From positions 32,633 through 96,632 of the forward strand of contig JAGFCB010000022.1 of the NCBI GenBank assembly GCA_022394775.1: 64,000 bases of DNA, written 5' to 3'. The position numbers and the translations under genes are program-made. The notes under the pieces were generated by a model. The model saw nothing but the letters and a program-made list of their open reading frames with translations. It was not told the DNA's origin and did not search any database. Positions within the stretch are counted from its first letter, which is position 1. Each line of letters starts with the position of its first letter. Shown here piece by piece: positions 1,857 to 41,750 of this stretch. This DNA comes from Candidatus Poribacteria bacterium (GTDB lineage Bacteria > Poribacteria > WGA-4E > WGA-3G).

Positions 1857-4412
1857 ATGAGTTATGCGAACGTTGCTTTTCCACTATCCGTAGATCAGGT
1901 GTTTACCTATGGCGTGCCGCGAGATTTGGACGCGGTTTTGCAACCTGGGGTTCGAGTATTAGCACCGTTTCGCCGAACAAAGCAGGAAGGCGTTGTCGTT
2001 GAACGTGTAGATGAAACCGATCTCGCTCCGAAACTTATCAAGAATGTCTCTGACTGTCTGGATGAGACTCCGATGTACTCTCGTGAGATGCTCAACCTTA
2101 CAAAATGGATGGCGGACTATTATGTCTGTCCGTGGGGCGTTGCGCTCTTTTCAGCAGTGCCAGCTGCTGTCCGCAGCCAGAAAAAGGAGCAGGTCGAGAT
2201 TTTACCCGAATTCTCCGCATCCCTCGGAAAAATCGAAGAAAAATTCGTCGCATTATTAGAAGCAGAAGGCAAACTCTCGATGCGTCAACTTGCCAGACGG
2301 ACTGGGTTGAGTTATCAGGATGTGCGTCCAAAGATTACAGCACTCTCCAACAAAGGTGTTGTTAAGATTGATGTTTCCCATAAACCGAAAGCGACCACGC
2401 AAAAAACGACTGTAGCGGAATTAGCGTTACCGATTGCTGATATTGAGGCAGAAATTGTGCAACTCAAGAATGAGGGAGCAGACGGTTCCAATAAGCGTCG
2501 CCATGCAGGAGATGCGAAACGCGCAGAAGTTCTCGAACTGCTTCTTGCTGAAAGTGCCCCGTTAGCAACGGCGGACTTGATAAAGCGGGTAAATGCGAGC
2601 AGTTCATTGTTACGCCCCTTGGAAAGACGCGGATTTATTCAGATTACACGCGCAGAAACGGTGCGGAATCCGCTGAACTCTGAGTCTGTTGCGCCGACAC
2701 ACCCCCTCCGGTTGAACTCGACGCAATTGACGGCGTTCTCGGAAATTCAAAAAGTCCTGGCATCAGACCCTGTAGGAGGGGTTTGTCCCCCCGATTCTTT
2801 GAACAAAGCTAAGCGGCCGCCGACTTTTCTCTTACACGGGGTAACCGGCAGCGGAAAAACAGAGGTCTATATGCAGGCGATGGCGGAAGTGTTGGCGAAT
2901 GGAAAGTCTGTGATAGTGTTGGTCCCAGAGATTTCACTTACACCGCAAACGGCTTCTCGATTTGTTGGACGCTTCGGGGAACGGGTCGCATTGTTGCATA
3001 GTCGGTTGAACGATGGCGAACGCTATGACCAATGGCATCGCATTCAGAAAGGTGAAGCGGATATTGTTATCGGTCCGCGTTCTGCTGTCTTTGCCCCAGT
3101 CAAAGCACTCGGCATGCTGATTATAGACGAGGAGCATTCGGACTCTTATAAATCGGATAACGCCCCGCGTTACCATGCGCGGGAAGTGGCGCAAAAACGG
3201 AGCGAACTCGCGAATTGTCCTGTTCTGCTTGGAAGTGCGACCCCATCTCTTGAGAGTTTCCATCATGCGAAAAATGGGAGTTATCGGCTTCTCAATTTAC
3301 CGAACCGTGTTTTTGATAGAAAGATGCCCGATGTTCACATCGTTGATATGCGAACCGAACTGAAAAAGGGCAATCGCACGATCTTCTCCGAGATACTCCG
3401 AAGTTCTATTGAAGAGCGGCTTGTCCGGCGAGAGCAAATTATTCTGTTCCTTAACCGGCGTGGACACTCCACTTATGTCTTCTGCCGAACGTGCGGCTAT
3501 GTTGAACAGTGTGACAATTGTTCTATCTCGTTAACCTACCACCGTGAGACGCAACTGCTTGTTTGCCACCACTGTGGTGCCAAACGTCCGACGCAGCCTA
3601 CCTGTCCGCAGTGCGGCAGTGAGGCTATCCGCTTTTTTGGTGCGGGAACAGAGGCGGTTGAGCAAGAGGTGCACAAGGCATTTCCAAAGGCGAGTGTCCA
3701 GCGATTTGATGCGGATTCGACGGCGCGAAAAAATGCGCATCAGCAGATTTTGAAAAGATTTGAACAGCAGAAGATTGACATCCTGATCGGTACACAGATG
3801 GTATCAAAAGGGTTAGACTTTCCGAACGTTACACTTGTCGGGGTTATCGCAGCGGATACGGCTTTAAATCTACCGGATTTCCGAGCGAGTGAGCAAACGT
3901 TCAGTCTGTTAACGCAGGTTGCGGGACGCTCTGGACGTGCTGAACTTGAGGGTAAAGTTGTCATCCAGACGTATATGCCGGAGCATTATTGTATCGCGGC
4001 TGCACAGAAGCACGACTACCTTGATTTCTATCAGCAGGAGATTGAAGCGCGCGGCGCGTTACAGTATCCACCGTTCTCGCATGTCGCAGTGCTCTTACTG
4101 CGGGGTAAAGACGAAAAAGAGGTCATTGATACCGCCCATGCTGTGCGCGATCAACTTGAGATATGGCAGACAGATCAAGCGCGTCCTTCGCGGGCACCTG
4201 ATACGCAAGAACTGGCAGTGGAAATCCTCGGTCCTGCCCCGGCACCGCTCTCGAAAATTGAAGGAAAATTTCGGTGGCATCTCTTGCTCCGAAGCCCTGC
4301 GGCGGAGAAAATGGGGCACCTCCTTAGACGTTTAAGTGACGATCCGCCTGTCAGCATTAAATCAAAGGCTATTGAATTTGTGATAGATATTGATCCAACG
4401 AATACACTCTAA
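1857..4412 (+). CDS. priA: Primosomal protein N' (replication restart helicase)
   Basis: GVTGSGKTEVY, DEEH, four CxxC pairs, QVAGRSGR, terminal IDIDP. Confidence 0.97.
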   Translation: MSYANVAFPLSVDQVFTYGVPRDLDAVLQPGVRVLAPFRRTKQEGVVVERVDETDLAPKLIKNVSDCLDETPMYSREMLNLTKWMADYYVCPWGVALFSAVPAAVRSQKKEQVEILPEFSASLGKIEEKFVALLEAEGKLSMRQLARRTGLSYQDVRPKITALSNKGVVKIDVSHKPKATTQKTTVAELALPIADIEAEIVQLKNEGADGSNKRRHAGDAKRAEVLELLLAESAPLATADLIKRVNASSSLLRPLERRGFIQITRAETVRNPLNSESVAPTHPLRLNSTQLTAFSEIQKVLASDPVGGVCPPDSLNKAKRPPTFLLHGVTGSGKTEVYMQAMAEVLANGKSVIVLVPEISLTPQTASRFVGRFGERVALLHSRLNDGERYDQWHRIQKGEADIVIGPRSAVFAPVKALGMLIIDEEHSDSYKSDNAPRYHAREVAQKRSELANCPVLLGSATPSLESFHHAKNGSYRLLNLPNRVFDRKMPDVHIVDMRTELKKGNRTIFSEILRSSIEERLVRREQIILFLNRRGHSTYVFCRTCGYVEQCDNCSISLTYHRETQLLVCHHCGAKRPTQPTCPQCGSEAIRFFGAGTEAVEQEVHKAFPKASVQRFDADSTARKNAHQQILKRFEQQKIDILIGTQMVSKGLDFPNVTLVGVIAADTALNLPDFRASEQTFSLLTQVAGRSGRAELEGKVVIQTYMPEHYCIAAAQKHDYLDFYQQEIEARGALQYPPFSHVAVLLLRGKDEKEVIDTAHAVRDQLEIWQTDQARPSRAPDTQELAVEILGPAPAPLSKIEGKFRWHLLLRSPAAEKMGHLLRRLSDDPPVSIKSKAIEFVIDIDPTNTL

Positions 4413-4554
4413 GAGTAGTTATAAGTTATAAGTACGGTTTTTCTGCGAAAAACCTTTAGGTTATAAGTAAAGAGCGGTCGGGAGTTTCTGAACCCTCTTA
4501 ACTTATAACTTATAACTGCGTACTCGCTAACTAATTACAAGGAATTAATTATAG

Positions 4555-5514
4555 ATGGGTAACCGGATATTTGAGAAACTTGCTGATCCAGACCTGCTTG
4601 CACAAAACCCGATCCTGGTTTTTGCGGCGGATCCACTTGCATCCGCTGGCATTAAAGGACTCGGACAGGTGCAGCATCCAAAACCACACTATCGTACACA
4701 CGCAGAGTTCTTGCAGCTTCAACGCGACCTCGTCGCTGATGGGCAATTAGATGGACTTCTGATGACACCTGCCGATGCAGAAACGCTTGCGCTTGAAGAA
4801 GACCTGCTTGAGAGCTCGCCGATCACACCGATTGTCCGGATGAATTCAGAAACCGCCATCTGGAACCCACGATTTGGTGTCTATACCTCACACCCGTCGA
4901 TGCCGTTTCAGACGGTATTTCCGGAGGATATGCAACGCTATTGTGAGGCACTTATCGGTCCCGCGCTGGAATGCAAGGTTAATCTTGGGTTGTACTCCAT
5001 TACACTCAACAACGATCCAGCCGCAGATGAACGGATGCTGCAAGCGTATGTACAATTCGCGCATGTCGTCGGTGAAATTGAAGGCTTCGATCATCTCTTA
5101 GAGGTGTTTTTACCGAACGTTAAACTCCCCGGCATGGACGAGGAAAAACGGGGTATGTACGTTGCGGATTCAATTGTTCGGACGATGAGTTACCTTCGGA
5201 AACACCAACGTCCCCGCTTTATTAAGACAGCGTATACGACTGGCGATGTCTGGGCTGAGTTGTGCCAATTCGATACGACGCTGGTGATCGGTGCGTTGGG
5301 CGGTCCTCGTCAAAACGCGCGTAGCACATTCACCTTGGCGCATAATGTCGTCAGTAACGGCGGACGTGCTATTCTGTTCGGACGCACCATCTTTGGAGAG
5401 GATGACCCGATCGGCTTTGTGCAATGCCTGCGTCGTGTGCTTGATGGCGAAGAAGATGCCCAGAGTGCCCATGCGTCGTATCAGAAGTTGTTGCGAGGTG
5501 TCCGTACGGGTTAG
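4555..5514 (+). CDS. Putative class I aldolase-like TIM-barrel protein
   Basis: HLLEVF, FIKTAY (candidate Schiff-base Lys), ALGG and GGRAILFGRTIF resemble the DeoC/FbaB/LacD-like barrel. Confidence 0.6.
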   Translation: MGNRIFEKLADPDLLAQNPILVFAADPLASAGIKGLGQVQHPKPHYRTHAEFLQLQRDLVADGQLDGLLMTPADAETLALEEDLLESSPITPIVRMNSETAIWNPRFGVYTSHPSMPFQTVFPEDMQRYCEALIGPALECKVNLGLYSITLNNDPAADERMLQAYVQFAHVVGEIEGFDHLLEVFLPNVKLPGMDEEKRGMYVADSIVRTMSYLRKHQRPRFIKTAYTTGDVWAELCQFDTTLVIGALGGPRQNARSTFTLAHNVVSNGGRAILFGRTIFGEDDPIGFVQCLRRVLDGEEDAQSAHASYQKLLRGVRTG

Positions 5515-5659
5515 CAAGGCTCCGTTATTCCTGAGGTCTGGTAGGCGCGCTTTGTAAATGTGCTTACCAGACAATCCAGCACAGTCTAACAGGCTATGCT
5601 ATAGCGGATCAAGAACACAGCCCAACAGGCTATGCTACAGCGGATTAGGAGATTTCTAA

Positions 5660-6964
5660 ATGCAGCATCAACCGTTAGAAACGCCGCGTATTCTCCTGCT
5701 CCTTCCAACACGCACATATCGGGCTACGGACTTCCTTGACGCTGCATTGAAACTTGATGTAGAGATCGTTATCGCTTCAGAAGAAGCCGCGACGACGGCG
5801 GATCTTTCGCCGCGCCAATGGCTTGTGTTGGACATCGCTGTGCCGAGCGTTGCGACCCAGACAATCCTTGAATTTGCTGAAACATACCCTATCACAGCGA
5901 TAGTTGGTGTTGATGACGATACTACGTTGCTTGCCACAACTGCCTCAGCGGCGTTAGGGCTTCCACACAATCCTGTTGCTTCAGCGAAAGCCACACGCGA
6001 TAAATACCTCTTACGGGACACATTAGCAACAAACAGTGTATCGGTCCCTGCTTACCAACGCTTCTCTATCTATGATGACGCTGTTGAAATAGCGCAGAAG
6101 CTCGGAACGGACATACCGATCACTTTCCCGTGTGTTATTAAGCCGTTATCCCTCTCCGCAAGCCGCGGTGTCATCCGTGCAGACACGCCTGCTGAATTCG
6201 TCGAAGCCTTTCAACGGACCACCAAACTCTTGCACGCTTTACAGGAAACCACTAATGCAGGCGGGGATTGTAACCCCGATTCCTCGGGGCACCCCTCGCA
6301 ATACCTACTCGTTGAAGACTATATCCCGGGGATAGAGGTAGCACTTGAGGGGATTCTCTTAGATGGTGAGCTGAAGGTGCTCGCGCTCTTCGATAAACCA
6401 GATCCGCTTGAGGGTCCTTTTTTTGAGGAGACACTCTATATCACGCCTTCCCGTTTACCGACGGATACCCAGGCAGCATTACATCATGCGACAGCAGAAG
6501 CTGCAGATGCTTTAGGGCTGCAGCACGGACCCGTTCACGCCGAATTGCGCTATAACGAGGAAGGCGCGCATCTCATCGAAATCGCTGCCCGAACGATTGG
6601 GGGCCTTTGCTCTCGGACCTTACGGTTCGGAACGGGGATGTCATTGGAGGAACTTGTTATCCGTCATGCGATTGGGCAACCGGTGGAAACATTACAGCGA
6701 GAACAACAAGCGGCAGGGGTCATGATGATTCCGGTGCCAAAGGCTGGTATCTTAGGCGAAGTGCGTGGCAAAACGCAGGCGTATCACGTAGACGGAATTG
6801 TAGAGGTTAACATCACGATCCCTATCGGCGGAGAGGTTGTGCCGTTACCGGAAGGGGCGCGGTATCTCGGTTTCATCTTTGCGCGTGCTGAAACACCCGA
6901 AGCGGTGGAGGCAGCATTGCGTGAAGCACATCGGCAGTTGGAATTTGTGATTCTGGCGGAGTGA
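5660..6964 (+). CDS. ATP-grasp domain protein
   Basis: RDKY, PCVIKP, SASRGV, VEDYIPG, HAELR and IEIAARTIGG motifs. Confidence 0.88.
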   Translation: MQHQPLETPRILLLLPTRTYRATDFLDAALKLDVEIVIASEEAATTADLSPRQWLVLDIAVPSVATQTILEFAETYPITAIVGVDDDTTLLATTASAALGLPHNPVASAKATRDKYLLRDTLATNSVSVPAYQRFSIYDDAVEIAQKLGTDIPITFPCVIKPLSLSASRGVIRADTPAEFVEAFQRTTKLLHALQETTNAGGDCNPDSSGHPSQYLLVEDYIPGIEVALEGILLDGELKVLALFDKPDPLEGPFFEETLYITPSRLPTDTQAALHHATAEAADALGLQHGPVHAELRYNEEGAHLIEIAARTIGGLCSRTLRFGTGMSLEELVIRHAIGQPVETLQREQQAAGVMMIPVPKAGILGEVRGKTQAYHVDGIVEVNITIPIGGEVVPLPEGARYLGFIFARAETPEAVEAALREAHRQLEFVILAE

Positions 6965-6989
6965 GCGACAGCAAGTTTAGGATGACGGT

Positions 6990-8651
6990 ATGCTGACAAA
7001 ACCATCCATTCTAATTCTTATTGTTATTATGGGCTTTCTCAGGACAGCACACGCGGAGAAAGATACACCCTTATTTACGGAAGTAAGCACTGCGCTCGGT
7101 TTTCCGCAACCGGAGACTTCTTGGTCTGCAGGCACATACGCCCTACCTGAGGTTATCGGTAGCGGGGTTGCAGTCTTTGATTACAATAATGATGACGCGC
7201 TGGATATTCTACACATTCGATTCCCGCCTCCGGGTGTGAGTGCCCCCGCGCCAAACCGACTTTTTCAACAACAACGGGATGGGACATTTGTTGACGTTAC
7301 AGCAGCCTCCGGCATTGGACATGAGGGTTACGGACAAGGGGTCGCAATCGGAGATGTGGATAACGATAGGGATATGGATGTCTATGTGACGAACTACGGT
7401 AGCGATGCTTTCTATCGAAACAAGGGTGATGGGACATTCGCCTTAGAGGAAGTAGGTCTCTCAAATGCGGCGTGGGGAACGTCTGCGACTTTCGGTGATT
7501 ATGACAGGGATGGCGACCTCGATCTCTATGTCGCGAACTACGTTGCGTTTGAGCCAGAGAGCGTCTGTCGTGGGAAACATGGTGCCCCAGATTACTGTAA
7601 CCCACAAGTTTTTGAGGCTGCCCCGGATCGACTTTTTCGGAACGATGGCAATGGTTCTTTCACCGATGTAACCGAGCCGTCGGGTATTGCTGCAATGTCC
7701 GGCAGGGGTCTCGGTGTTGTGTGTTTGGATCTGACGGGTGATGGTTGGTCGGATTTTTTTGTTGCCAATGACGGCGAAGCGAACCATCTGTGGGTCAATC
7801 AGACCGACGGTACTTTTGCTGAGGAAGCCATATTGCACGGGCTTGCGTTTAACACTTACGGTCAACCCGAAGGCAGCATGGGTATCGCTGTCGGGGATGT
7901 CAACGGCGATACACTGCCTGACCTATTTGCGACGCATTTGTCTGGCGAGACAAATACACTCTATATCGCCTCTAACCACTCCGTATTTACAGATATGACT
8001 GAAATAGCAGGTTTCGCAGGACGCGACCTACCTTTTACAGGCTTTGGATGTGGTTTCCTTGATTTCGACAACGATGCCTATCTTGACATCGCGCTCGCCA
8101 ATGGAAGGGTGAAGCGCGGAGAGATTTTAGATGGTTCAGACGTTGGAGAATTCTGGAATTTTTATGCCGAACCCAATCTCCTCTTTCAAAATAGCCATCA
8201 GCCGATAGCCCATTTTACCGATGTGAGTTCCCGCGCGCCTGACTTTACGAGACGCGTTGAGGTGAGCCGCGGAATGGCTTTCGGTGATATTGACAGGGAC
8301 GGCGATGTTGATATGGTAATGAGCAGTCTTGATAATCGGCTTCGCGTTTTCCGAAACGACGCGCCACCACCTGAGCACCATTGGCTATTTGTGCAAGCGA
8401 TTACGCAAAATCGAGATGCGCTCGGGGCACAAGTGACACTCCGAACTGAATCACGCACTTTGACAGGTTACATGCTGTCGGGGACGAGTTACCTCAGTAG
8501 TAGTGAACCGAGTGTACATTTCGGTCTCGGAACAGTTGATAAAATTCAAGCGATTGAGGTGCATTGGCCAGACGGAAGTCGCGAAAGCTTCCCGGGGACA
8601 ACTGCGAATCGACGTGTAAAGGTTTATCAAGGAAAAGGCAGGGTATTTTGA
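6990..8651 (+). CDS. CRTAC1-like FG-GAP repeat / ASPIC-UnbV protein
   Basis: Signal peptide, repeated DxDxDGDxD motifs, C-terminal SYLSS..VHFGLG..WPDG. Confidence 0.9.
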   Translation: MLTKPSILILIVIMGFLRTAHAEKDTPLFTEVSTALGFPQPETSWSAGTYALPEVIGSGVAVFDYNNDDALDILHIRFPPPGVSAPAPNRLFQQQRDGTFVDVTAASGIGHEGYGQGVAIGDVDNDRDMDVYVTNYGSDAFYRNKGDGTFALEEVGLSNAAWGTSATFGDYDRDGDLDLYVANYVAFEPESVCRGKHGAPDYCNPQVFEAAPDRLFRNDGNGSFTDVTEPSGIAAMSGRGLGVVCLDLTGDGWSDFFVANDGEANHLWVNQTDGTFAEEAILHGLAFNTYGQPEGSMGIAVGDVNGDTLPDLFATHLSGETNTLYIASNHSVFTDMTEIAGFAGRDLPFTGFGCGFLDFDNDAYLDIALANGRVKRGEILDGSDVGEFWNFYAEPNLLFQNSHQPIAHFTDVSSRAPDFTRRVEVSRGMAFGDIDRDGDVDMVMSSLDNRLRVFRNDAPPPEHHWLFVQAITQNRDALGAQVTLRTESRTLTGYMLSGTSYLSSSEPSVHFGLGTVDKIQAIEVHWPDGSRESFPGTTANRRVKVYQGKGRVF

Positions 8652-29236: not shown

Positions 29237-29386
29237 GCTGAAAACCGAAAACCTTTGCTTGTATAGTATATCATATTTTTCTGGGAAATCAAATTATTTA
29301 TTAAAGTTTCGCTGTTGCTTTTAAGCAGCCCTCTTGCAGGCGGGGTTTCAAACCCCGCTTGCAGGGCTGGGAAATCAAATTATTTA

Positions 29387-29878
29387 TTAAAGTTTCGCTA
29401 TTGCTTTCAAGGATTCGAGGACTTCTGTCTGTTGGACGAGATCGAATTGATGTGTGCCGATATACATATATCTGATAACCCCTGTTTTGTCAATGACAAA
29501 CGTTGACGGACGTGCGATGTTGTAAGCCTCAAGACTGAGCCAGTGGTAGACGCCGTAGTTTTTGATGACGTTCCGCGTTTTGTCTATTAGCAGTGGGAAT
29601 GTGATGCCGTTTTTATCGGCATAGCCGCGGAGTTCGCGGGGCCACTGCCCAGCGATGGCAAGTGGTGTTGCTGTATGCTCGGCGTAGGCTTCAACATTTT
29701 CTTGGACTGCCGACAACTGACGGCGGCTGTTCGGTCACCATGTTCCTCTGAAGAATGTTAGCACGATGTGTTGCGCGTCTCGGTACGCTTCAAGCGAGAT
29801 GTCCACTCGTTGGTGTGATGACAGTGTGAATAGGGGCGCGGTATCGCCGATGTTGAGGATTTTGTTTTTTCGCGGCAT
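29387..29878 (-). CDS. AhpC/TSA (peroxiredoxin-like) redoxin, probable selenoprotein with UxxS motif
   Basis: Frame from ATG 29878 reads GDTAPLFTL...IVLTFFRGTW-TGA-PNSRRQL and continues into the listed 109-aa ORF (FPLLID, RPSTFVIDKTGVIRY); TGA at 29737-29735 aligns with the Cys of WCPxC. Confidence 0.82.
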
Positions 29879-29884
29879 GGGCAT

Positions 29885-29913: not shown

Positions 29914-30003
29914 GTTTTTAGCGGTTGGCAGTGTAAATATGAGATGGCGTGAGGGATGTCGCGAGGTAGAAGATCACGAGCATAGGAGGATATGAAGCAG
30001 AAA

Positions 30004-30056
30004 GATCGCGAGTACAGATTGAGCCTACAAAGATCGCGAGCACAGCTCGCTCCTAC
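30004..30056 (-). repeat. GTAG-type REP cluster (GTAGGAGCGAGCTGTGCTCGCGATC)
   Basis: Full copy 30032-30056, degenerate copy 30004-30028; same REP at 33847-33959 (three) and 41605-41673 (two). Confidence 0.85.
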
Positions 30057-30082
30057 AGAAGAGGGGTTGGATTCTATAGCCT

Positions 30083-33000
30083 TTACTTTTCCTCTTGATT
30101 GGTCGAAGAAGGGAGTGCATACATGCTTCGCCGCACTTTCACAATTTCACCAGCATCGACAAGCCGTTTGAGTTCGTTTTTTGTGGAACCTGGATGTCCT
30201 TCAATGACATCAATGAGTTCAGATGTTTTTTTCTCGCCTGTGGCAAGAAGTGCGAAGATCTGATCACGGAGCGGGACGCGGAGGGGTTTCCCGCCTCTAA
30301 ACTTCATCAATATTCGATTGGCTTGGCTTCTGGAGATGCCCAAGACGTGTTCTACTTCATCTCTATGGGATTCGGCAGTGAGAGTGTCGCGTTCTGCCTC
30401 AAACTGCTCACGCGTAGCGATGGTTTCAGGGAGTTTGTCTAAGCCACCGGCGACCTCAAAATCTTCCCAATCAAAAAGCAACGTTTCAGGACGATCAGTG
30501 ATATCAGGGAGGGGTACACTCGCAAGCAGGACTACGGTTTTATTGGGTAAGCGGTTCAAGCCGGCGCGTCCGATAACCTGTGAAAATAAGCCTACAGATT
30601 GCCGTTCATGGACGGACCGAATGCGTGCGTCTTTATAGATACCGGATACTGCTTCACCATCATAAGAGAGGGGTTTTTCGTCGTCTCCGAACTGGATCTG
30701 CGATTGTCTCCAAACGTGTTCTGGTGTCCAGAAAGGTCCCCCAACGATCCAAATGACATCTGCCGTTTCAAAAGCGGAGGTTTCTAATGTTGTTAGGTGC
30801 TTAAAGCCCTTAACGAAACAGACGTTCTCTTTTGCTGCGATGTGCTTTAAATGTAGTTTTACCGGTGCGCAGCAGATAATTGCATGCCGAACGTTCGGGT
30901 CCTTCTCAATTTCGGCTTGGATATGGAGAAAAAAGCGTTGCCCCATTTCGGACATGCCGAGTACCCGCCAGTCGGTATCGTAGTTTAAAAGCGTATGTCG
31001 TGGATAGATGCCTGTTCGGATCTGAAAGACTCGATTTCCGGGTACCCATGCTGTCGGTTTGACGTGATGGACTTCAATTTCGGCATCGGGGAACGCTCTA
31101 CGCAAATCGCGTTCAGAAAGCATTGATGACATAAACAAGAGTCGTTTGACGTTCGGATGCAACACCGGCGGCACCCAGAACTTTAACTGTGTCTCATCCC
31201 ATAACATGGGAGCATCGGCATCCCGTAAGTAATATGCGAAGAAACGCGTGAGTTGATGCCAAAATGTCCAGTTCAGATCCTGACAGACAGTTGGAAAGTC
31301 TTGAATTTTCGCAGTAGTTGAGGTATCCAAGATCCCGAATTCAATGGCTTGTGTAATTGAGATAGGGATATTCAGGTCTTGGTTCAATTGAAAAGCCTCA
31401 AGTTCAAAGGCCGGTACTTCTTTTAGGGTGAGTCTATTCGCAGCGTCGGTATCCAAGGGAATGTAGGCAGCGGTGCCGCCGTCAAACTCGATAGCAAAAC
31501 GCGCTAACATCTTTCCGGTTTGATCATCAACAAATTCGCGGGGTACGACTTTAGCGGTTATATTGACTTGCCCCATTTGCTGGGCGAGCGTTGCTTCTTG
31601 TCCTTGAAAGGCTTGCACGACGGCTCGGACGCGCCTGATAGGATTCTCATCCATTTCGCCTTTAATCTCTAAAGCGTTTAGTAAAGCAGTGGTAAAGTTC
31701 CCTAAGGCGTACCCGCGCCAATTCAGGCACCAATTTTCCAAGGTATCTTTTGATATTTTACACTGTATAAACAGCCTACCTGCGTGTGCTTCATCGATGA
31801 CACAAAGTCGTTCTGTGCTGTCCACAGGTTCAAGAATTTCAGCTGCCATTTTTGCGTGTTCTGGATCCAAAAACAGCCGAATAGGATTCAATATTTGTAC
31901 TGCGGCATTTTTTAGCGCGGTAGATTGGGATAAATATCCACGTTGTTGGCATTCAGTATAGACGGGACACTGTGGACAAATACTCTCATTCGGATTTCCA
32001 CCTTTCTCTTCGAGTGCCTTACACCGCTCTGGATCCTCGCAGACATTCCCGTGTTGAAAGGGTGTCGCCATCCGTATCTCGGCAGGTATATCTTTCACTT
32101 TTTGCCACAAGTAATTCCGGGGTCTGAGGTGTACAACCGATGACACATTTCGATCCCGAAAGTGTTGTTCGAGTTTTTGCGTCACCTCGAATTCCGCGGT
32201 TAGACTAACAGTGCCGCCGTCAAGGGCATGGGTCGCCGCAGCGTAGCTTTTACCGCCACCGTCTTCGGCAATAAGTCCAAGAATCCGTACATCCCGATTA
32301 AAAACGCTCTGCATCTGGGTAGCACTTTCTTCAAGCGTTCCATAAACCTTATTCTGCGTTTCTTTTTTAGGTAGGACTGGAGAGGGTCGTTTTATTCCCA
32401 ATGGGCTGAGCTTGGCTTCGCGTACGGCAAGAATATTATCGGTTACAGGTAATCCAGTGGTCGGTATTGCTGGCAGAATACCGGTATCATCCCAGATATT
32501 TGTTAGCGGTGTCGCTTCCATTGGTAGCCCAGTATCAGGCATGGAAGCGCGAACCCAGACTTCTGTATCTTGCTCCCATAGCGAAACGTGTGCATCGCCA
32601 AAACCGCTGTCGGATTGACGCCACTGGTAAATGCCGTCCTTTTGTTGAAGATAAGAAAACCCGCGCTTCAAAAACGCCTCTTTTGCGAGGTTAAGGTTGT
32701 GCGATCCGAAGGACATTGGCACGATAGGCATCTCTTGAACGGCAGCTTCCAAGTCGCTTTCTTCAAGCGATATTGGTTGGTGAAGTGCAGCCCGAAGCGT
32801 ATCAATAGGTGCCAAGAGTACCTCTTTGGCAATGATAGGTGGATCTAAGAGGTTTCCCATCAGAATTTCGTGGCGGCCATCCCAACAACTGTATCCTTTA
32901 TCGCCTAAGATTTCAAGCAGATGCGCGCGATGGTATGGATTTTCGGAGGTCGGTGTGTGTTTGTAAATATACTGTTTGGCTTCATTGGTATTGGGATGGA

Positions 33001-33496
33001 GATAATTCAGGACTCTGCAGGAGAAGCGCAATCCACCAGACTTTGATAGCGTCAATAGTGGGTTCGCGACAGCGTTAAGGAGTGCCTCAACACAGGTGAG
33101 AACGGCATCGGGAGCAGCACAAATAGCGTCATACTTAAACTCGATGTCGTGCCACTGGGCACCCTCACATTCTGAGGGGACACCGGTATATACTTGGATT
33201 CCCCATGATTGATGCCAGAATACCCCAGTCCAGTCTTTTCTGCCTTGGCGTTTCAAGAATCGTTCTTCCTCAAAACCTGACAGACCGTGGTCGTAATCAG
33301 GGACGCGCCTCATCGGCATGAAAGAGATGTTCGCCTGCTCAAGTCTATAAAGGTTTACAGGGTATCTCCAAGCACAATAGGCGGTAAAATTATAAGGAAG
33401 CGCTTTATAGAGTGCTGGTGTTACTCTTGTCTTACGCTGTCGAAGGGGTTTTTTGTGTCGTTGATGACAACGTTGAATGATATCTTTTAAATTCAT
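30083..33496 (-). CDS. Large hypothetical protein: Prim-Pol-like N-terminus, Cys cluster, SF2 helicase-like core, C-terminal HTH/wHTH
   Basis: GIQVYTGVPS, WHDIE, TLSKSGGLR, LEILGDKGY; AEDGGGKS, VIDEAH, QVIGRAGLNR; CEDPERC...CPQCPVYTEC; C-terminal LKRLVDAGEIVKVRRSMY. Confidence 0.7.
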   Translation of the reverse strand: MNLKDIIQRCHQRHKKPLRQRKTRVTPALYKALPYNFTAYCAWRYPVNLYRLEQANISFMPMRRVPDYDHGLSGFEEERFLKRQGRKDWTGVFWHQSWGIQVYTGVPSECEGAQWHDIEFKYDAICAAPDAVLTCVEALLNAVANPLLTLSKSGGLRFSCRVLNYLHPNTNEAKQYIYKHTPTSENPYHRAHLLEILGDKGYSCWDGRHEILMGNLLDPPIIAKEVLLAPIDTLRAALHQPISLEESDLEAAVQEMPIVPMSFGSHNLNLAKEAFLKRGFSYLQQKDGIYQWRQSDSGFGDAHVSLWEQDTEVWVRASMPDTGLPMEATPLTNIWDDTGILPAIPTTGLPVTDNILAVREAKLSPLGIKRPSPVLPKKETQNKVYGTLEESATQMQSVFNRDVRILGLIAEDGGGKSYAAATHALDGGTVSLTAEFEVTQKLEQHFRDRNVSSVVHLRPRNYLWQKVKDIPAEIRMATPFQHGNVCEDPERCKALEEKGGNPNESICPQCPVYTECQQRGYLSQSTALKNAAVQILNPIRLFLDPEHAKMAAEILEPVDSTERLCVIDEAHAGRLFIQCKISKDTLENWCLNWRGYALGNFTTALLNALEIKGEMDENPIRRVRAVVQAFQGQEATLAQQMGQVNITAKVVPREFVDDQTGKMLARFAIEFDGGTAAYIPLDTDAANRLTLKEVPAFELEAFQLNQDLNIPISITQAIEFGILDTSTTAKIQDFPTVCQDLNWTFWHQLTRFFAYYLRDADAPMLWDETQLKFWVPPVLHPNVKRLLFMSSMLSERDLRRAFPDAEIEVHHVKPTAWVPGNRVFQIRTGIYPRHTLLNYDTDWRVLGMSEMGQRFFLHIQAEIEKDPNVRHAIICCAPVKLHLKHIAAKENVCFVKGFKHLTTLETSAFETADVIWIVGGPFWTPEHVWRQSQIQFGDDEKPLSYDGEAVSGIYKDARIRSVHERQSVGLFSQVIGRAGLNRLPNKTVVLLASVPLPDITDRPETLLFDWEDFEVAGGLDKLPETIATREQFEAERDTLTAESHRDEVEHVLGISRSQANRILMKFRGGKPLRVPLRDQIFALLATGEKKTSELIDVIEGHPGSTKNELKRLVDAGEIVKVRRSMYALPSSTNQEEK

Positions 33497-33578
33497 GCTC
33501 TATTTCACTCAAGTAATGTTCTATCAAGACAATACAATAATACAAATTAAACTGGAAAATCTATGTCCTCATGCGAGA

Positions 33579-33607
33579 ATTATACATGAACTCGATTTAC
33601 ATGTCAA
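33579..33607 (-). promoter_or_regulatory. Consensus sigma70 promoter of the 1137-aa gene
   Basis: TTGACA-17 nt-TATAAT, with the -10 box about 80 nt upstream of ATG 33496. Confidence 0.75.
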
Positions 33608-33846
33608 GTTAAATTTGTGTATATTTCAGGACGATTTATAGTGAAACCTGTAATTATAATAAATCCCCTAATTACCTATACACCAACGGGGAGGCGAGGT
33701 TCCAAACCTCGCCAGCGGTGGGGGGATGTTTGTTCCCTGATGAGATGTAAACTTATTTTTGGATTTTGCTATAATTGGGGGTGTTTCATTATTAGCGGAG
33801 GAGACCTCGTACCGCAAACTGTATGAAGATTAAATAAATCATTAGG

Positions 33847-33959
33847 GATCGCGAACACAGCTCGCTCCTATAATAAAAGAAGGATCGCGAGCACAGCTCG
33901 CTCCTACAGAGGAAGACAGCACCAGCTTTTGCAAAATCGTCAGCGCAGCTCGCTCCTAC
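33847..33959 (-). repeat. GTAG-type REP cluster (three copies)
   Basis: Variants of GATCGCGAGCACAGCTCGCTCCTAC at 33847, 33883 and 33942. Confidence 0.85.
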
Positions 33960-34001
33960 GCGGGAAATTCCAACCCGCTATCTACTATAGATGTACTGCT
34001 T

Positions 34002-41560: not shown

Positions 41561-41750
41561 ACAGAGCCATTCAATTGTCAGTTCTTTATGATTTTCGCGG
41601 TGGTATCGCGAGCACAGCTCGCTCCTACTGAGGACACTGCCACCCGAAGATCGCGAGCACAGCTCGCTCCTACGGTGAAGAGACTTTAGGTAGAAAATCA
41701 CAATTACCGGAATTCAGTGGTTTGGAGTTGACAGGTCTTTTTTTTTGGAT

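Follow-up and report, generated by a model that had tools for sequence, protein, structure and literature searches.

Proteins that join a primase to a helicase form the core of plasmid and virus replication. ORF904 of pRN1 carries a helicase of superfamily 3 (SF3), and to our knowledge the known fusions of archaeo-eukaryotic primases (AEPs) use motors of the SF3, MCM or RepA type. The gene described here lies on the minus strand at 30083..33496 of a 64,000-nucleotide stretch of Candidatus Poribacteria contig JAGFCB010000022.1 (the window, to which coordinates refer unless another genome or contig is named). It encodes a protein of 1137 amino acids (aa) that we regard as probably a single-chain combination of a Prim-Pol-type AEP, an iron-sulphur (Fe-S) helicase of the XPD/DinG family within superfamily 2 (SF2) and a tail of helix-turn-helix (HTH) and winged HTH (wHTH) elements, descended from the replication initiators of mobile elements. 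In such a protein the tail would put the chain on a DNA site, the helicase would run 5'→3' on single-stranded DNA like XPD/DinG enzymes, and the primase domain would lay primers on the exposed DNA. Together the parts would make a one-chain primosome that follows the logic of mobile-element replication initiators with another class of motor and, if active, would couple unwinding to priming in a different way. A first-pass annotation of the same DNA had called the product a self-contained replication or DNA-processing protein, which is reasonable given this domain reading.

AEPs have been described in fusion with many helicases, including a group "with only remote similarity to SF2 helicases" (Kazlauskas et al. 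2018, PMC5862659). As described in that article's text, the all3500-like AEP-SF2 fusions resemble the present protein in joining an AEP to a remote SF2 domain and in their ties to mobile elements. Unlike it, they keep the motif II His, and their helicase domains are likened to SPbeta/T4-like phage proteins and herpesvirus UL9; compared by description, identity with this group is possible. SPbeta YonV, picked from an ESM Atlas lead, gave E 0.37 against our family profile, a weak test with a single sequence. The DR0530-like AEP family is also similar by description, having Arg or Lys in place of the motif II His (PMC5862659), as R157 is here. The terms 'DinG' and 'Rad3' have no occurrence in the text of PMC5862659, and we found no description of an AEP-XPD/DinG fusion in the literature searched; the supplementary protein lists of that article could hold one. 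Literature on Poribacteria primases and helicases, and on AEPs with XPD or DinG, likewise described no such protein. The main text of a 2025 review of DinG-like proteins (PMC11981726) presents ten subgroups, none of this kind, and contains no occurrence of 'primase', 'Prim-Pol', 'AEP' or 'winged'.

The open reading frame (ORF) at 30083..33496 is a complete coding sequence with an ATG start (stop included) and is a real, intact gene under purifying selection. In what follows, G000 is the assembly holding the window (5.9 Mb, 331 contigs, GC 47%), G002-G023 are relatives, C-numbers are contigs and P0001 is the protein of this gene. All of the motifs quoted in the first-pass annotation are found in the P0001 translation, among them GIQVYTGVPS (aa 99-108), WHDIE (115-119), TLSKSGGLR (149-157) and LEILGDKGY (194-202), and this copy retains every catalytic motif (D117/E119/E195, GKS, DEAH and motif VI). 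About 83 nt ahead of the start codon, where the DNA is rich in A and T (GC 0.41), the minus strand carries a sigma-70-like promoter match, TTGACA-17-TATAAT (33607->33579). It agrees with the consensus at 12/12 positions, so that the putative promoter proposed earlier holds as a sequence pattern.

Both fold and profile matches place a Prim-Pol-type AEP domain at aa 26-242 (32771..33421, minus strand), with motif I at D117-x-E119, R157 at the motif II position and E195 as the motif III acid. The profile comparisons preceded the fold predictions, and the two agree. Aligned by hhalign with 8 PF09250 sequences of the same phylum, a 38-sequence family profile gave E 4.4e-4 over nearly the whole Prim-Pol domain and paired D117/E119 with the motif I DxD, R157 with the motif II His and E195 with the motif III acid. 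The reversed control for this comparison gave E 0.25, and reversed and cross-domain controls for both domains gave E 0.08-0.38. An AlphaFold model of aa 1-400, built from a 39-sequence alignment, had a mean predicted local distance difference test score (pLDDT) of 81.9, and of about 90 over aa 1-240. Its top VIA-align match in a library of 48,161 chains was the ORF904 prim-pol (Z 11.8, root-mean-square deviation 3.6 Å, 175/210 residues aligned, model residues 26-242), followed by 3m1m, also a pRN1 prim-pol (Z 11.6), and the phage NrS-1 primase-polymerase (Z 7.5); the best unrelated chain reached Z 5.6. The best nine Foldseek rows were all Prim-Pol (E 1.5e-3 to 2.3e-2, probability 0.77-1.00), and after them came herpes simplex virus helicase-primase and LigD polymerase domains. 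For aa 1-350, 25 of the 30 nearest ESM Atlas clusters fell in the Prim-Pol (PF09250) set, at 0.96, which we take as a lead only. The N-terminal fold is thus the one seen in ORF904-type and NrS-1 enzymes, and the order of primase, helicase and winged helix in one chain is also that of ORF904.

The AEP catalytic fold, motif I and the motif III acid characteristic of the Prim-Pol clade are all present, and the sxH of motif II is replaced, with Arg157 in 121/121 of the closest family members. Because the motif II His is also replaced in some other AEP families, by Arg/Lys, Gln or Tyr (PMC5862659), Arg at this position is a variant and does not exclude the domain from the AEP superfamily. The earlier reading of the N-terminus as a Prim-Pol AEP with Arg at motif II is therefore supported by the VIA-align and Foldseek folds and by the hhalign motif register. 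The PF09250 hidden Markov model (HMM) itself matched neither P0001 (E up to 1) nor any of 39 family members (E up to 10), and none of 56 genomes of this genus searched with it had a match. Comparison of the N-terminus with 5 BT4734-like relatives, a very small profile, gave E 0.59. Behind the primase the structure model predicts a small alpha/beta domain at aa 264-342 (32471..32707, minus strand), for which the best VIA-align scores (Z 4.8-5.6, to KA1 domains and the N-terminal parts of Twinkle and T4 gp61) are not decisive and hhalign with 3 PriCT-2 regions, a tiny profile, gave E 0.57. This domain is missing from the short family forms P0013, P0014 and P0017.

The central part of the protein, aa 387-1028 (30413..32338, minus strand), matches XPD/DinG-family SF2 helicases by fold and profile and comprises two RecA-like lobes with inserted domains. 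A model of aa 351-1137 (54 sequences) reached pLDDT 90.5 and a predicted template modelling score (pTM) of 0.81. Foldseek ranks 1-21 for this model were exclusively XPD/Rad3, TFIIH-complex, DinG and CasDinG entries, including XPD 3crv (E 2.1e-11), T. acidophilum XPD (2.7e-11), E. coli DinG 6fws (4.1e-10) and CasDinG 8e2w (6.1e-9), with DdmD and Hna lower. The VIA-align scores were Z 15.3 for Rad3/XPD (461 residues aligned), Z 14.6 for XPD and Z 12.3 for DinG (491/699 aligned). Generic SF2 helicases had similar Z, yet they aligned over 260-300 residues, compared with 420-490 for XPD/DinG chains, whose alignment spans model residues 37-678; this difference hints at inserts in common, which may include the Arch domain that the XPD/Rad3/DinG family carries in motor domain 1. 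When a 53-sequence helicase profile was aligned with 30 Poribacteria DinG orthologs, hhalign gave a probability of 93% and E 3.2e-7 over columns 1-636 of 651, and the N-terminal half alone gave E 1.8e-8; the reversed control gave E 0.37. Walker A (AEDGGGKS, aa 410-417, 32246..32269), three Cys and the stretch that follows them, Walker B (DEAH, aa 568-571, 31784..31795), SATL and motif VI (QVIGRAGLNR, aa 973-982, 30551..30580; all on the minus strand) are in register with DinG. The Foldseek and hhalign results thus agree on two RecA-like motor domains with SF2 motifs I, II, III (SAT) and VI, and the AEP and RecA-like folds expected from the earlier reading were both predicted when AlphaFold and Foldseek were applied per domain.

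The Pfam families DEAD_2 and Helicase_C_2 have no match in P0001, and PF06733 (DEAD_2) matched in 0/41 genomes. The DinG comparison set was drawn from PF13307 matches, of which G000 has one, an ordinary DinG on C65; each genome likewise keeps one ordinary DinG. For aa 390-1040 the nearest ESM Atlas clusters were DEAD/ResIII-type or nameless helicases, again only a lead. The protein is unlike ORF904-type enzymes in having an SF2 XPD/DinG helicase and Arg instead of His at motif II, and in being chromosomal, solitary and multicopy with no matching plasmid or phage record.

Between the Walker motifs (aa 417 to 568) lie four invariant Cys, C486-x20-C507-x2-C510-x5-C516, followed by GYLSQ (31949..32041, minus strand), which form a predicted metal site. 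In the hhalign comparison the DinG C-x4-C-x5-C is matched by C507, C510 and C516, so the site agrees in position and conservation with the Cys domain of the XPD/Rad3/DinG family, for which the Fe-S domain and 5'→3' polarity are family properties (PMC3270479, PMC6300356). The first-pass annotation had seen a five-Cys cluster where XPD/DinG proteins have their Fe-S site, within a helicase of SF2. The folds and hhalign agree on that position, and C486, C492, C507, C510 and C516 are all present, but only four of them are invariant: C492 is kept in 118/121 of the closest members and varies in distant relatives. Judged from the sequence, the four Cys most likely bind a 4Fe-4S cluster, with Zn as the alternative. 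The protein thus resembles XPD/Rad3/DinG proteins (including YoaA, CasDinG and DdmD) in its best structural matches, its motif register and three of its four Cys, and differs from them in Cys spacing and in the fusion to an AEP and a wHTH.

An HTH and a wHTH at aa ~1045-1130 (30107..30364, minus strand) make up the C-terminus. Pfam AbiEi_4 matches here with E 5.9e-4 and 20.3 bits, under its 25-bit cut-off; across 39 family members AbiEi_4 matches 18 and HTH_5 12. The family profile found MarR/ArsR-type chains among PDB sequences (E 5e-4 to 3e-3), and in the structure model aa 1076-1127 form helices and then two strands. The sub-threshold HMM match, the profile and the model all point to a wHTH, as had been proposed. 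Beyond the wHTH and very weak DEAH-helicase rows, family profiles found nothing among PDB sequences, and phmmer of the protein against the same sequences found no match.

The residues on which the proposed activities would depend are not equally conserved. The four Cys are invariant in 54/54 diverse sequences and in 121/121 of the closest members, and the Cys segment (aa 476-530) has the lowest ratio of nonsynonymous to synonymous substitution (dN/dS) in the gene, 0.03-0.07. D117, R157 and D206 are each present in 121/121 closest members and E195 in 116/121. The Walker A Lys (K416) is kept in 106/121 and GK[ST] in 75/121, the Walker B DE in 84/121 and motif VI R977 in 88/121; distant relatives have canonical Walker motifs. 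In G000 the copies on C147 and at C309:113082-116450 are Walker-dead by nature.

Several observations weigh against a one-chain primosome derived from mobile elements. The acid at position 119 is found in just 85/121 closest members, Walker A Lys and Walker B DE occur together in just 78/121, and INDVE or VDGAD replaces IDEAH in close relatives, so that ATPase or primase residues have disappeared from about one third of these relatives, with the Cys site intact in all of them. Shorter open forms of ~980 aa (without ~454-740) and ~800 aa (without ~260-740) also exist. The N-terminal Foldseek E-values slightly exceed 1e-3, and neither Pfam nor NCBIfam nor PHROGs (0 families) gives an AEP or helicase family for the protein. 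Neither plasmid and phage records (searched by tblastn with P0001) nor IMG/VR, with the queries used, yielded a relative; this and the solitary state of the copies speak against a simple replication role and, because such relatives are missing, the mobile-element origin rests on the architecture and on viral structural look-alikes.

Because of the lost catalytic motifs, many copies cannot work as described above, and what is conserved may be a function that requires neither ATP hydrolysis nor priming. The decay of ATPase motifs beside an invariant Cys site points to a function other than textbook replication. One tentative idea, which we consider doubtful as a whole, is that this is the first described AEP-XPD/DinG fusion, a 5'→3' one-chain primosome adopted by the chromosome in one genus and multiplied there to about ten or more diverging paralogs per genome, and a new single-protein system that recognises and acts on foreign or damaged DNA and in which ATP hydrolysis is optional in many copies. 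On this view the work would fall to the metal site and the primase core, both strictly conserved. The cellular role may be that of a replication relic, of defence or of repair.

The gene is not the orphan it had been taken for. P0001 matches 10 gene-sized loci in G000 including its own, at 24-57% identity, plus a 22-aa fragment; the nine further paralogs comprise two adjacent copies on C239, a second copy on C309, copies on C147, C160, C257, C263 and C229 and a weak match on C29. At the genus level the family is large. In a library clustered at 50% identity, 474 clusters are related at E <= 1e-3, of which 182 reach E <= 1e-30, and a 90% library holds at least 1259 related proteins at E <= 0.001 (7998 candidates scored), whose sole name is 'hypothetical protein [Candidatus Poribacteria bacterium]'. 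With 40 relatives and E <= 1e-20, the family was found in 23/24 genomes of the same genus and 0/16 genomes of seven other genera in the order. Many genomes have 10-20 matches, which are matches and not copy numbers, and there are tandem arrays and some copies with internal stops. The DNA pattern for the signature CPxC-x5-C-x3-GYLSQ recovered at least 116 stretches in the genome_contigs collection (among 80 listed, 77 titled Poribacteria and 2 'uncultured bacterium') and had 0 matches in IMG/VR. A Butyrivibrio match to this pattern was rejected as a chance occurrence antisense to a polysaccharide gene. As far as we have searched, the family therefore appears confined to one genus of Poribacteria. 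The genus concerned consists of sponge symbionts. A family of this size without annotation, restricted to one genus and with about ten or more matches in many of its genomes, plainly merits a Pfam or NCBIfam model of its own.

Some of the copies are arranged in groups. Five lie head to tail within 13 kb at G016:C1:2558654-2571627, where the array consists of two full-length copies and two pairs of matches from ~800-aa forms, and a pair made of a full form and a ~980-aa form recurs in G014, G018 and G023. Directly upstream of the tandem paralogs on C239 (locus 5652-8511) are a VWA-domain gene and a SNF2 helicase gene; the latter matches the PADLOC ZorD/DpdE helicase models, which may reflect generic SNF2 similarity.

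Multiplication of this kind, with tandem pairs and arrays, internal stops in some copies and patchy presence at a given site, might be expected of a minimal selfish element, be it the initiator left over from integrated plasmids or viruses that have decayed, or a lone gene able to mobilise itself. The primase-helicase-wHTH order of plasmid and virus initiators such as ORF904, with its fold match, also fits this explanation, as do the top BFVD hits of the helicase module. These hits, two viral proteins without a name that are 953-1085 aa long (A0A1P8DJ66 and A0A1B1IQ42, E 1e-14 and 6e-13), are a lead for a viral counterpart. However, paralogs that are 24-57% identical leave no room for a recent burst, and neither this copy nor the family's 146 flanking ORFs (see below) have an integrase, terminal repeats or other element genes around them. 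The plasmid, phage and IMG/VR collections hold no match, and single-protein locus searches found no relative in the viral_contigs or genome_contigs collections. When P0069 was compared with phage and plasmid records by tblastn, its matches to primases were limited to the N-terminal primase part. Among distant metagenomic relatives, the same helicase-like module and HTH follow BT4734-like_N in 4/35 and PriCT_2 in 3/35.

Substitution rates also argue against selfish decay. Relative to syntenic orthologs the gene has dN/dS of 0.21-0.24, its neighbours 0.11-0.15, and its synonymous divergence (dS) is 0.69-0.70 compared with 0.63 for hemW. Since dS is like that of the neighbours and dN/dS is about 0.2, the gene has been inherited vertically in G000, G005 and G022 under purifying selection, with constraint about twice as relaxed as on housekeeping genes. 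We therefore find a minimal selfish element improbable as an account of the present copies. The family probably descends from mobile-element replication proteins, and its copies now sit as solitary, vertically inherited, often gained and lost chromosomal genes.

The surroundings of the gene are ribBA, ribE, ribD, a peroxiredoxin gene, hemW and a Zn-dehydrogenase gene, in keeping with the earlier description of housekeeping neighbours without an integrase or phage gene. Its best syntenic orthologs are in G005 (74% identity), adjoining hemW, and in G022 (72%), adjoining the peroxiredoxin gene and ribD. A reported '1 TGA' raised the G005 ortholog as a candidate pseudogene; this was rejected, as the TGA was not seen inside the codon alignment and is probably the terminal stop. 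The gene is present at this site in 3/13 genomes examined, and in ten other genomes of the genus it is absent within 8 kb downstream of hemW. These ten are about as distant as G005, since their hemW proteins are 82-86% identical. Between hemW and the peroxiredoxin gene, G023 has a LamG gene only, G006 a LamG gene and TnpB, and G004 a Type IIG/ISP restriction-modification enzyme (Type_ISP_C E 6e-109; PADLOC REase_MTase_IIG E 1e-244) and TnpB; in G005 the ortholog is followed directly by the same restriction-enzyme gene as in G004. Because relatives hold different genes there, the site is a variable slot, and it is an integration hot spot in the genus. The Type IIG/ISP-like gene encodes 1024 aa (G004 locus 2244-5318, G005 locus 2-1504), and the G004 TnpB behind it has OrfB_IS605 and a Cas12f1-like TNB.

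A slot that elsewhere holds a restriction enzyme, TnpB and LamG genes, with a restriction gene beside one ortholog, raises the alternative that the protein is a single-gene factor in defence or against mobile DNA, a helicase-primase that senses or acts on invading DNA, with the paralogs as diversified specificities. Its variable presence (3/13 genomes at the site), its evolution about twice as fast as that of its neighbours, its many divergent copies and the defence helicases CasDinG, DdmD and Hna among its structural relatives are consistent with such a role. However, in P0001 PADLOC returned just one weak DinG match (typeIV_DinG over aa 481-605, E 5.3e-4, 16.8 bits) and a weak AbiEi HTH (E ~0.01), and in two other paralogs nothing or just an HTH. 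No nuclease or other effector domain was found in the protein.

Nor do the family's neighbours point to defence. Starting from 115 signature loci in genome_contigs and skipping loci without a tblastn match, we collected for the family genes the closest flanking ORF of 100 aa or more in both directions, which gave 146 ORFs. Pfam assigned no family to 52 of these; the others included ArgG (8), LamG_3 (6), SNF2 (5), PhyH (5), transposases (5: Y1_Tnp, IS1595 and three DDE), AP_endonuc_2 (4), Ribosomal L13 (3), RRXRR (1) and HSDR_N_2 (1), with no integrase, recombinase or phage structural gene and the rest assorted metabolic. The flanking ORFs are thus mostly housekeeping or metabolic, and no partner gene common to the family and no recurrent defence partner occur among them. 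Several loci are moreover conserved across species: copies 65-69% identical to the gene described here occupy one other locus in G009, G013, G002 and G019, with flanks matching C60 and C112 of G000. For the second C309 copy, G022 has an ortholog at 70% identity, and four other genomes reach 60% at most. On balance a defence factor seems rather unlikely, and we retain the primase-helicase descended from replication initiators as the preferred explanation.

Short hairpin repeats resembling repetitive extragenic palindromic (REP) elements lie on both sides of the gene in one orientation. Two copies, one of them degenerate, are downstream (30005-30063) and a cluster of three is upstream (33848-33966), all on the minus strand. 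Read and folded on that strand, the repeat has GTAG followed by a 6-bp stem and a 3-nt loop. The REP 21-mer has 6 matches in the window, including 41608 and 41653, with 0 expected from 100 shuffles, and 83 copies with <=3 mismatches on 41 contigs of G000. The first-pass annotation's report of REPs on both sides in one orientation, and near 41605-41673 without the gene, was thereby confirmed. The 5' GTAG, the short hairpin and the 83 genomic copies are as in systems of REPs and REP-associated tyrosine transposases (RAYTs).

That bracket had also suggested that the gene is tied to the repeats, or that its product is the enzyme spreading them. The copies on both sides in one orientation speak for a protein that moves or maintains the hairpins, but none of the 9 other paralog loci has a REP within 3 kb, even allowing up to 4 mismatches. 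The 83 copies over 41 contigs stand against the same explanation. In the G005 ortholog the ~95-120 bp between hemW and the gene start contain no REP, and four relatives without the gene have REPs downstream of hemW (G007 10 copies, G008 3, G019 3 and G002 1). Unlike a RAYT, the protein has no HUH/Y1 domain, and the repeats are not tied to its family; six Y1_Tnp matches exist elsewhere in G000, and three of these sit between hairpin repeats of a kind of their own. This REP does not directly adjoin any Y1 transposase gene of G000; the nearest instance is a 5-mismatch match ~770 bp off. It is thus extremely improbable that the protein moves or maintains the REPs, and the bracket is a feature of intergenic DNA in the genus, a bystander to the gene.

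Other hairpin repeats occur in the same genome. A second repeat at 33693..33713 has a 9-bp stem, GGCGAGGTT...AACCTCGCC, and folds at -10.6 kcal/mol; it is distinct from the GTAG REP and has 191 genome matches with <=3 mismatches, both strands counted. A third hairpin family, with CCCC/GGGG-type stems beside a ...CTGTGTAG... motif, forms arrays on the flanks of two short Y1 transposase genes (G000:C58 and G000:C226), and these genes with their arrays look like RAYT-REP pairs of their own.

The gene next door encodes an AhpC/TSA peroxiredoxin (29387-29884, minus strand) and has an in-frame TGA at 29735-29737, at the position of the peroxidatic Cys (GTW-U-P). Read through this TGA, the product covers the whole Pfam domain (1-124 of 124, E 1.6e-27), which makes it likely from sequence that the neighbour is a selenocysteine enzyme. 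The truncated peroxiredoxin ORF recurs in G004, G006 and G023, and among relatives the TGA itself was read in G022 only. The gene has a promoter match of its own, with 11/12 positions, at 29913->29885. Between ribD and the peroxiredoxin gene (29300-29411) are two copies of a 26-nt direct repeat (92% identical, 86 nt apart) and, at 29335-29363, a nearly perfect palindrome of 14 nt that may be a terminator.

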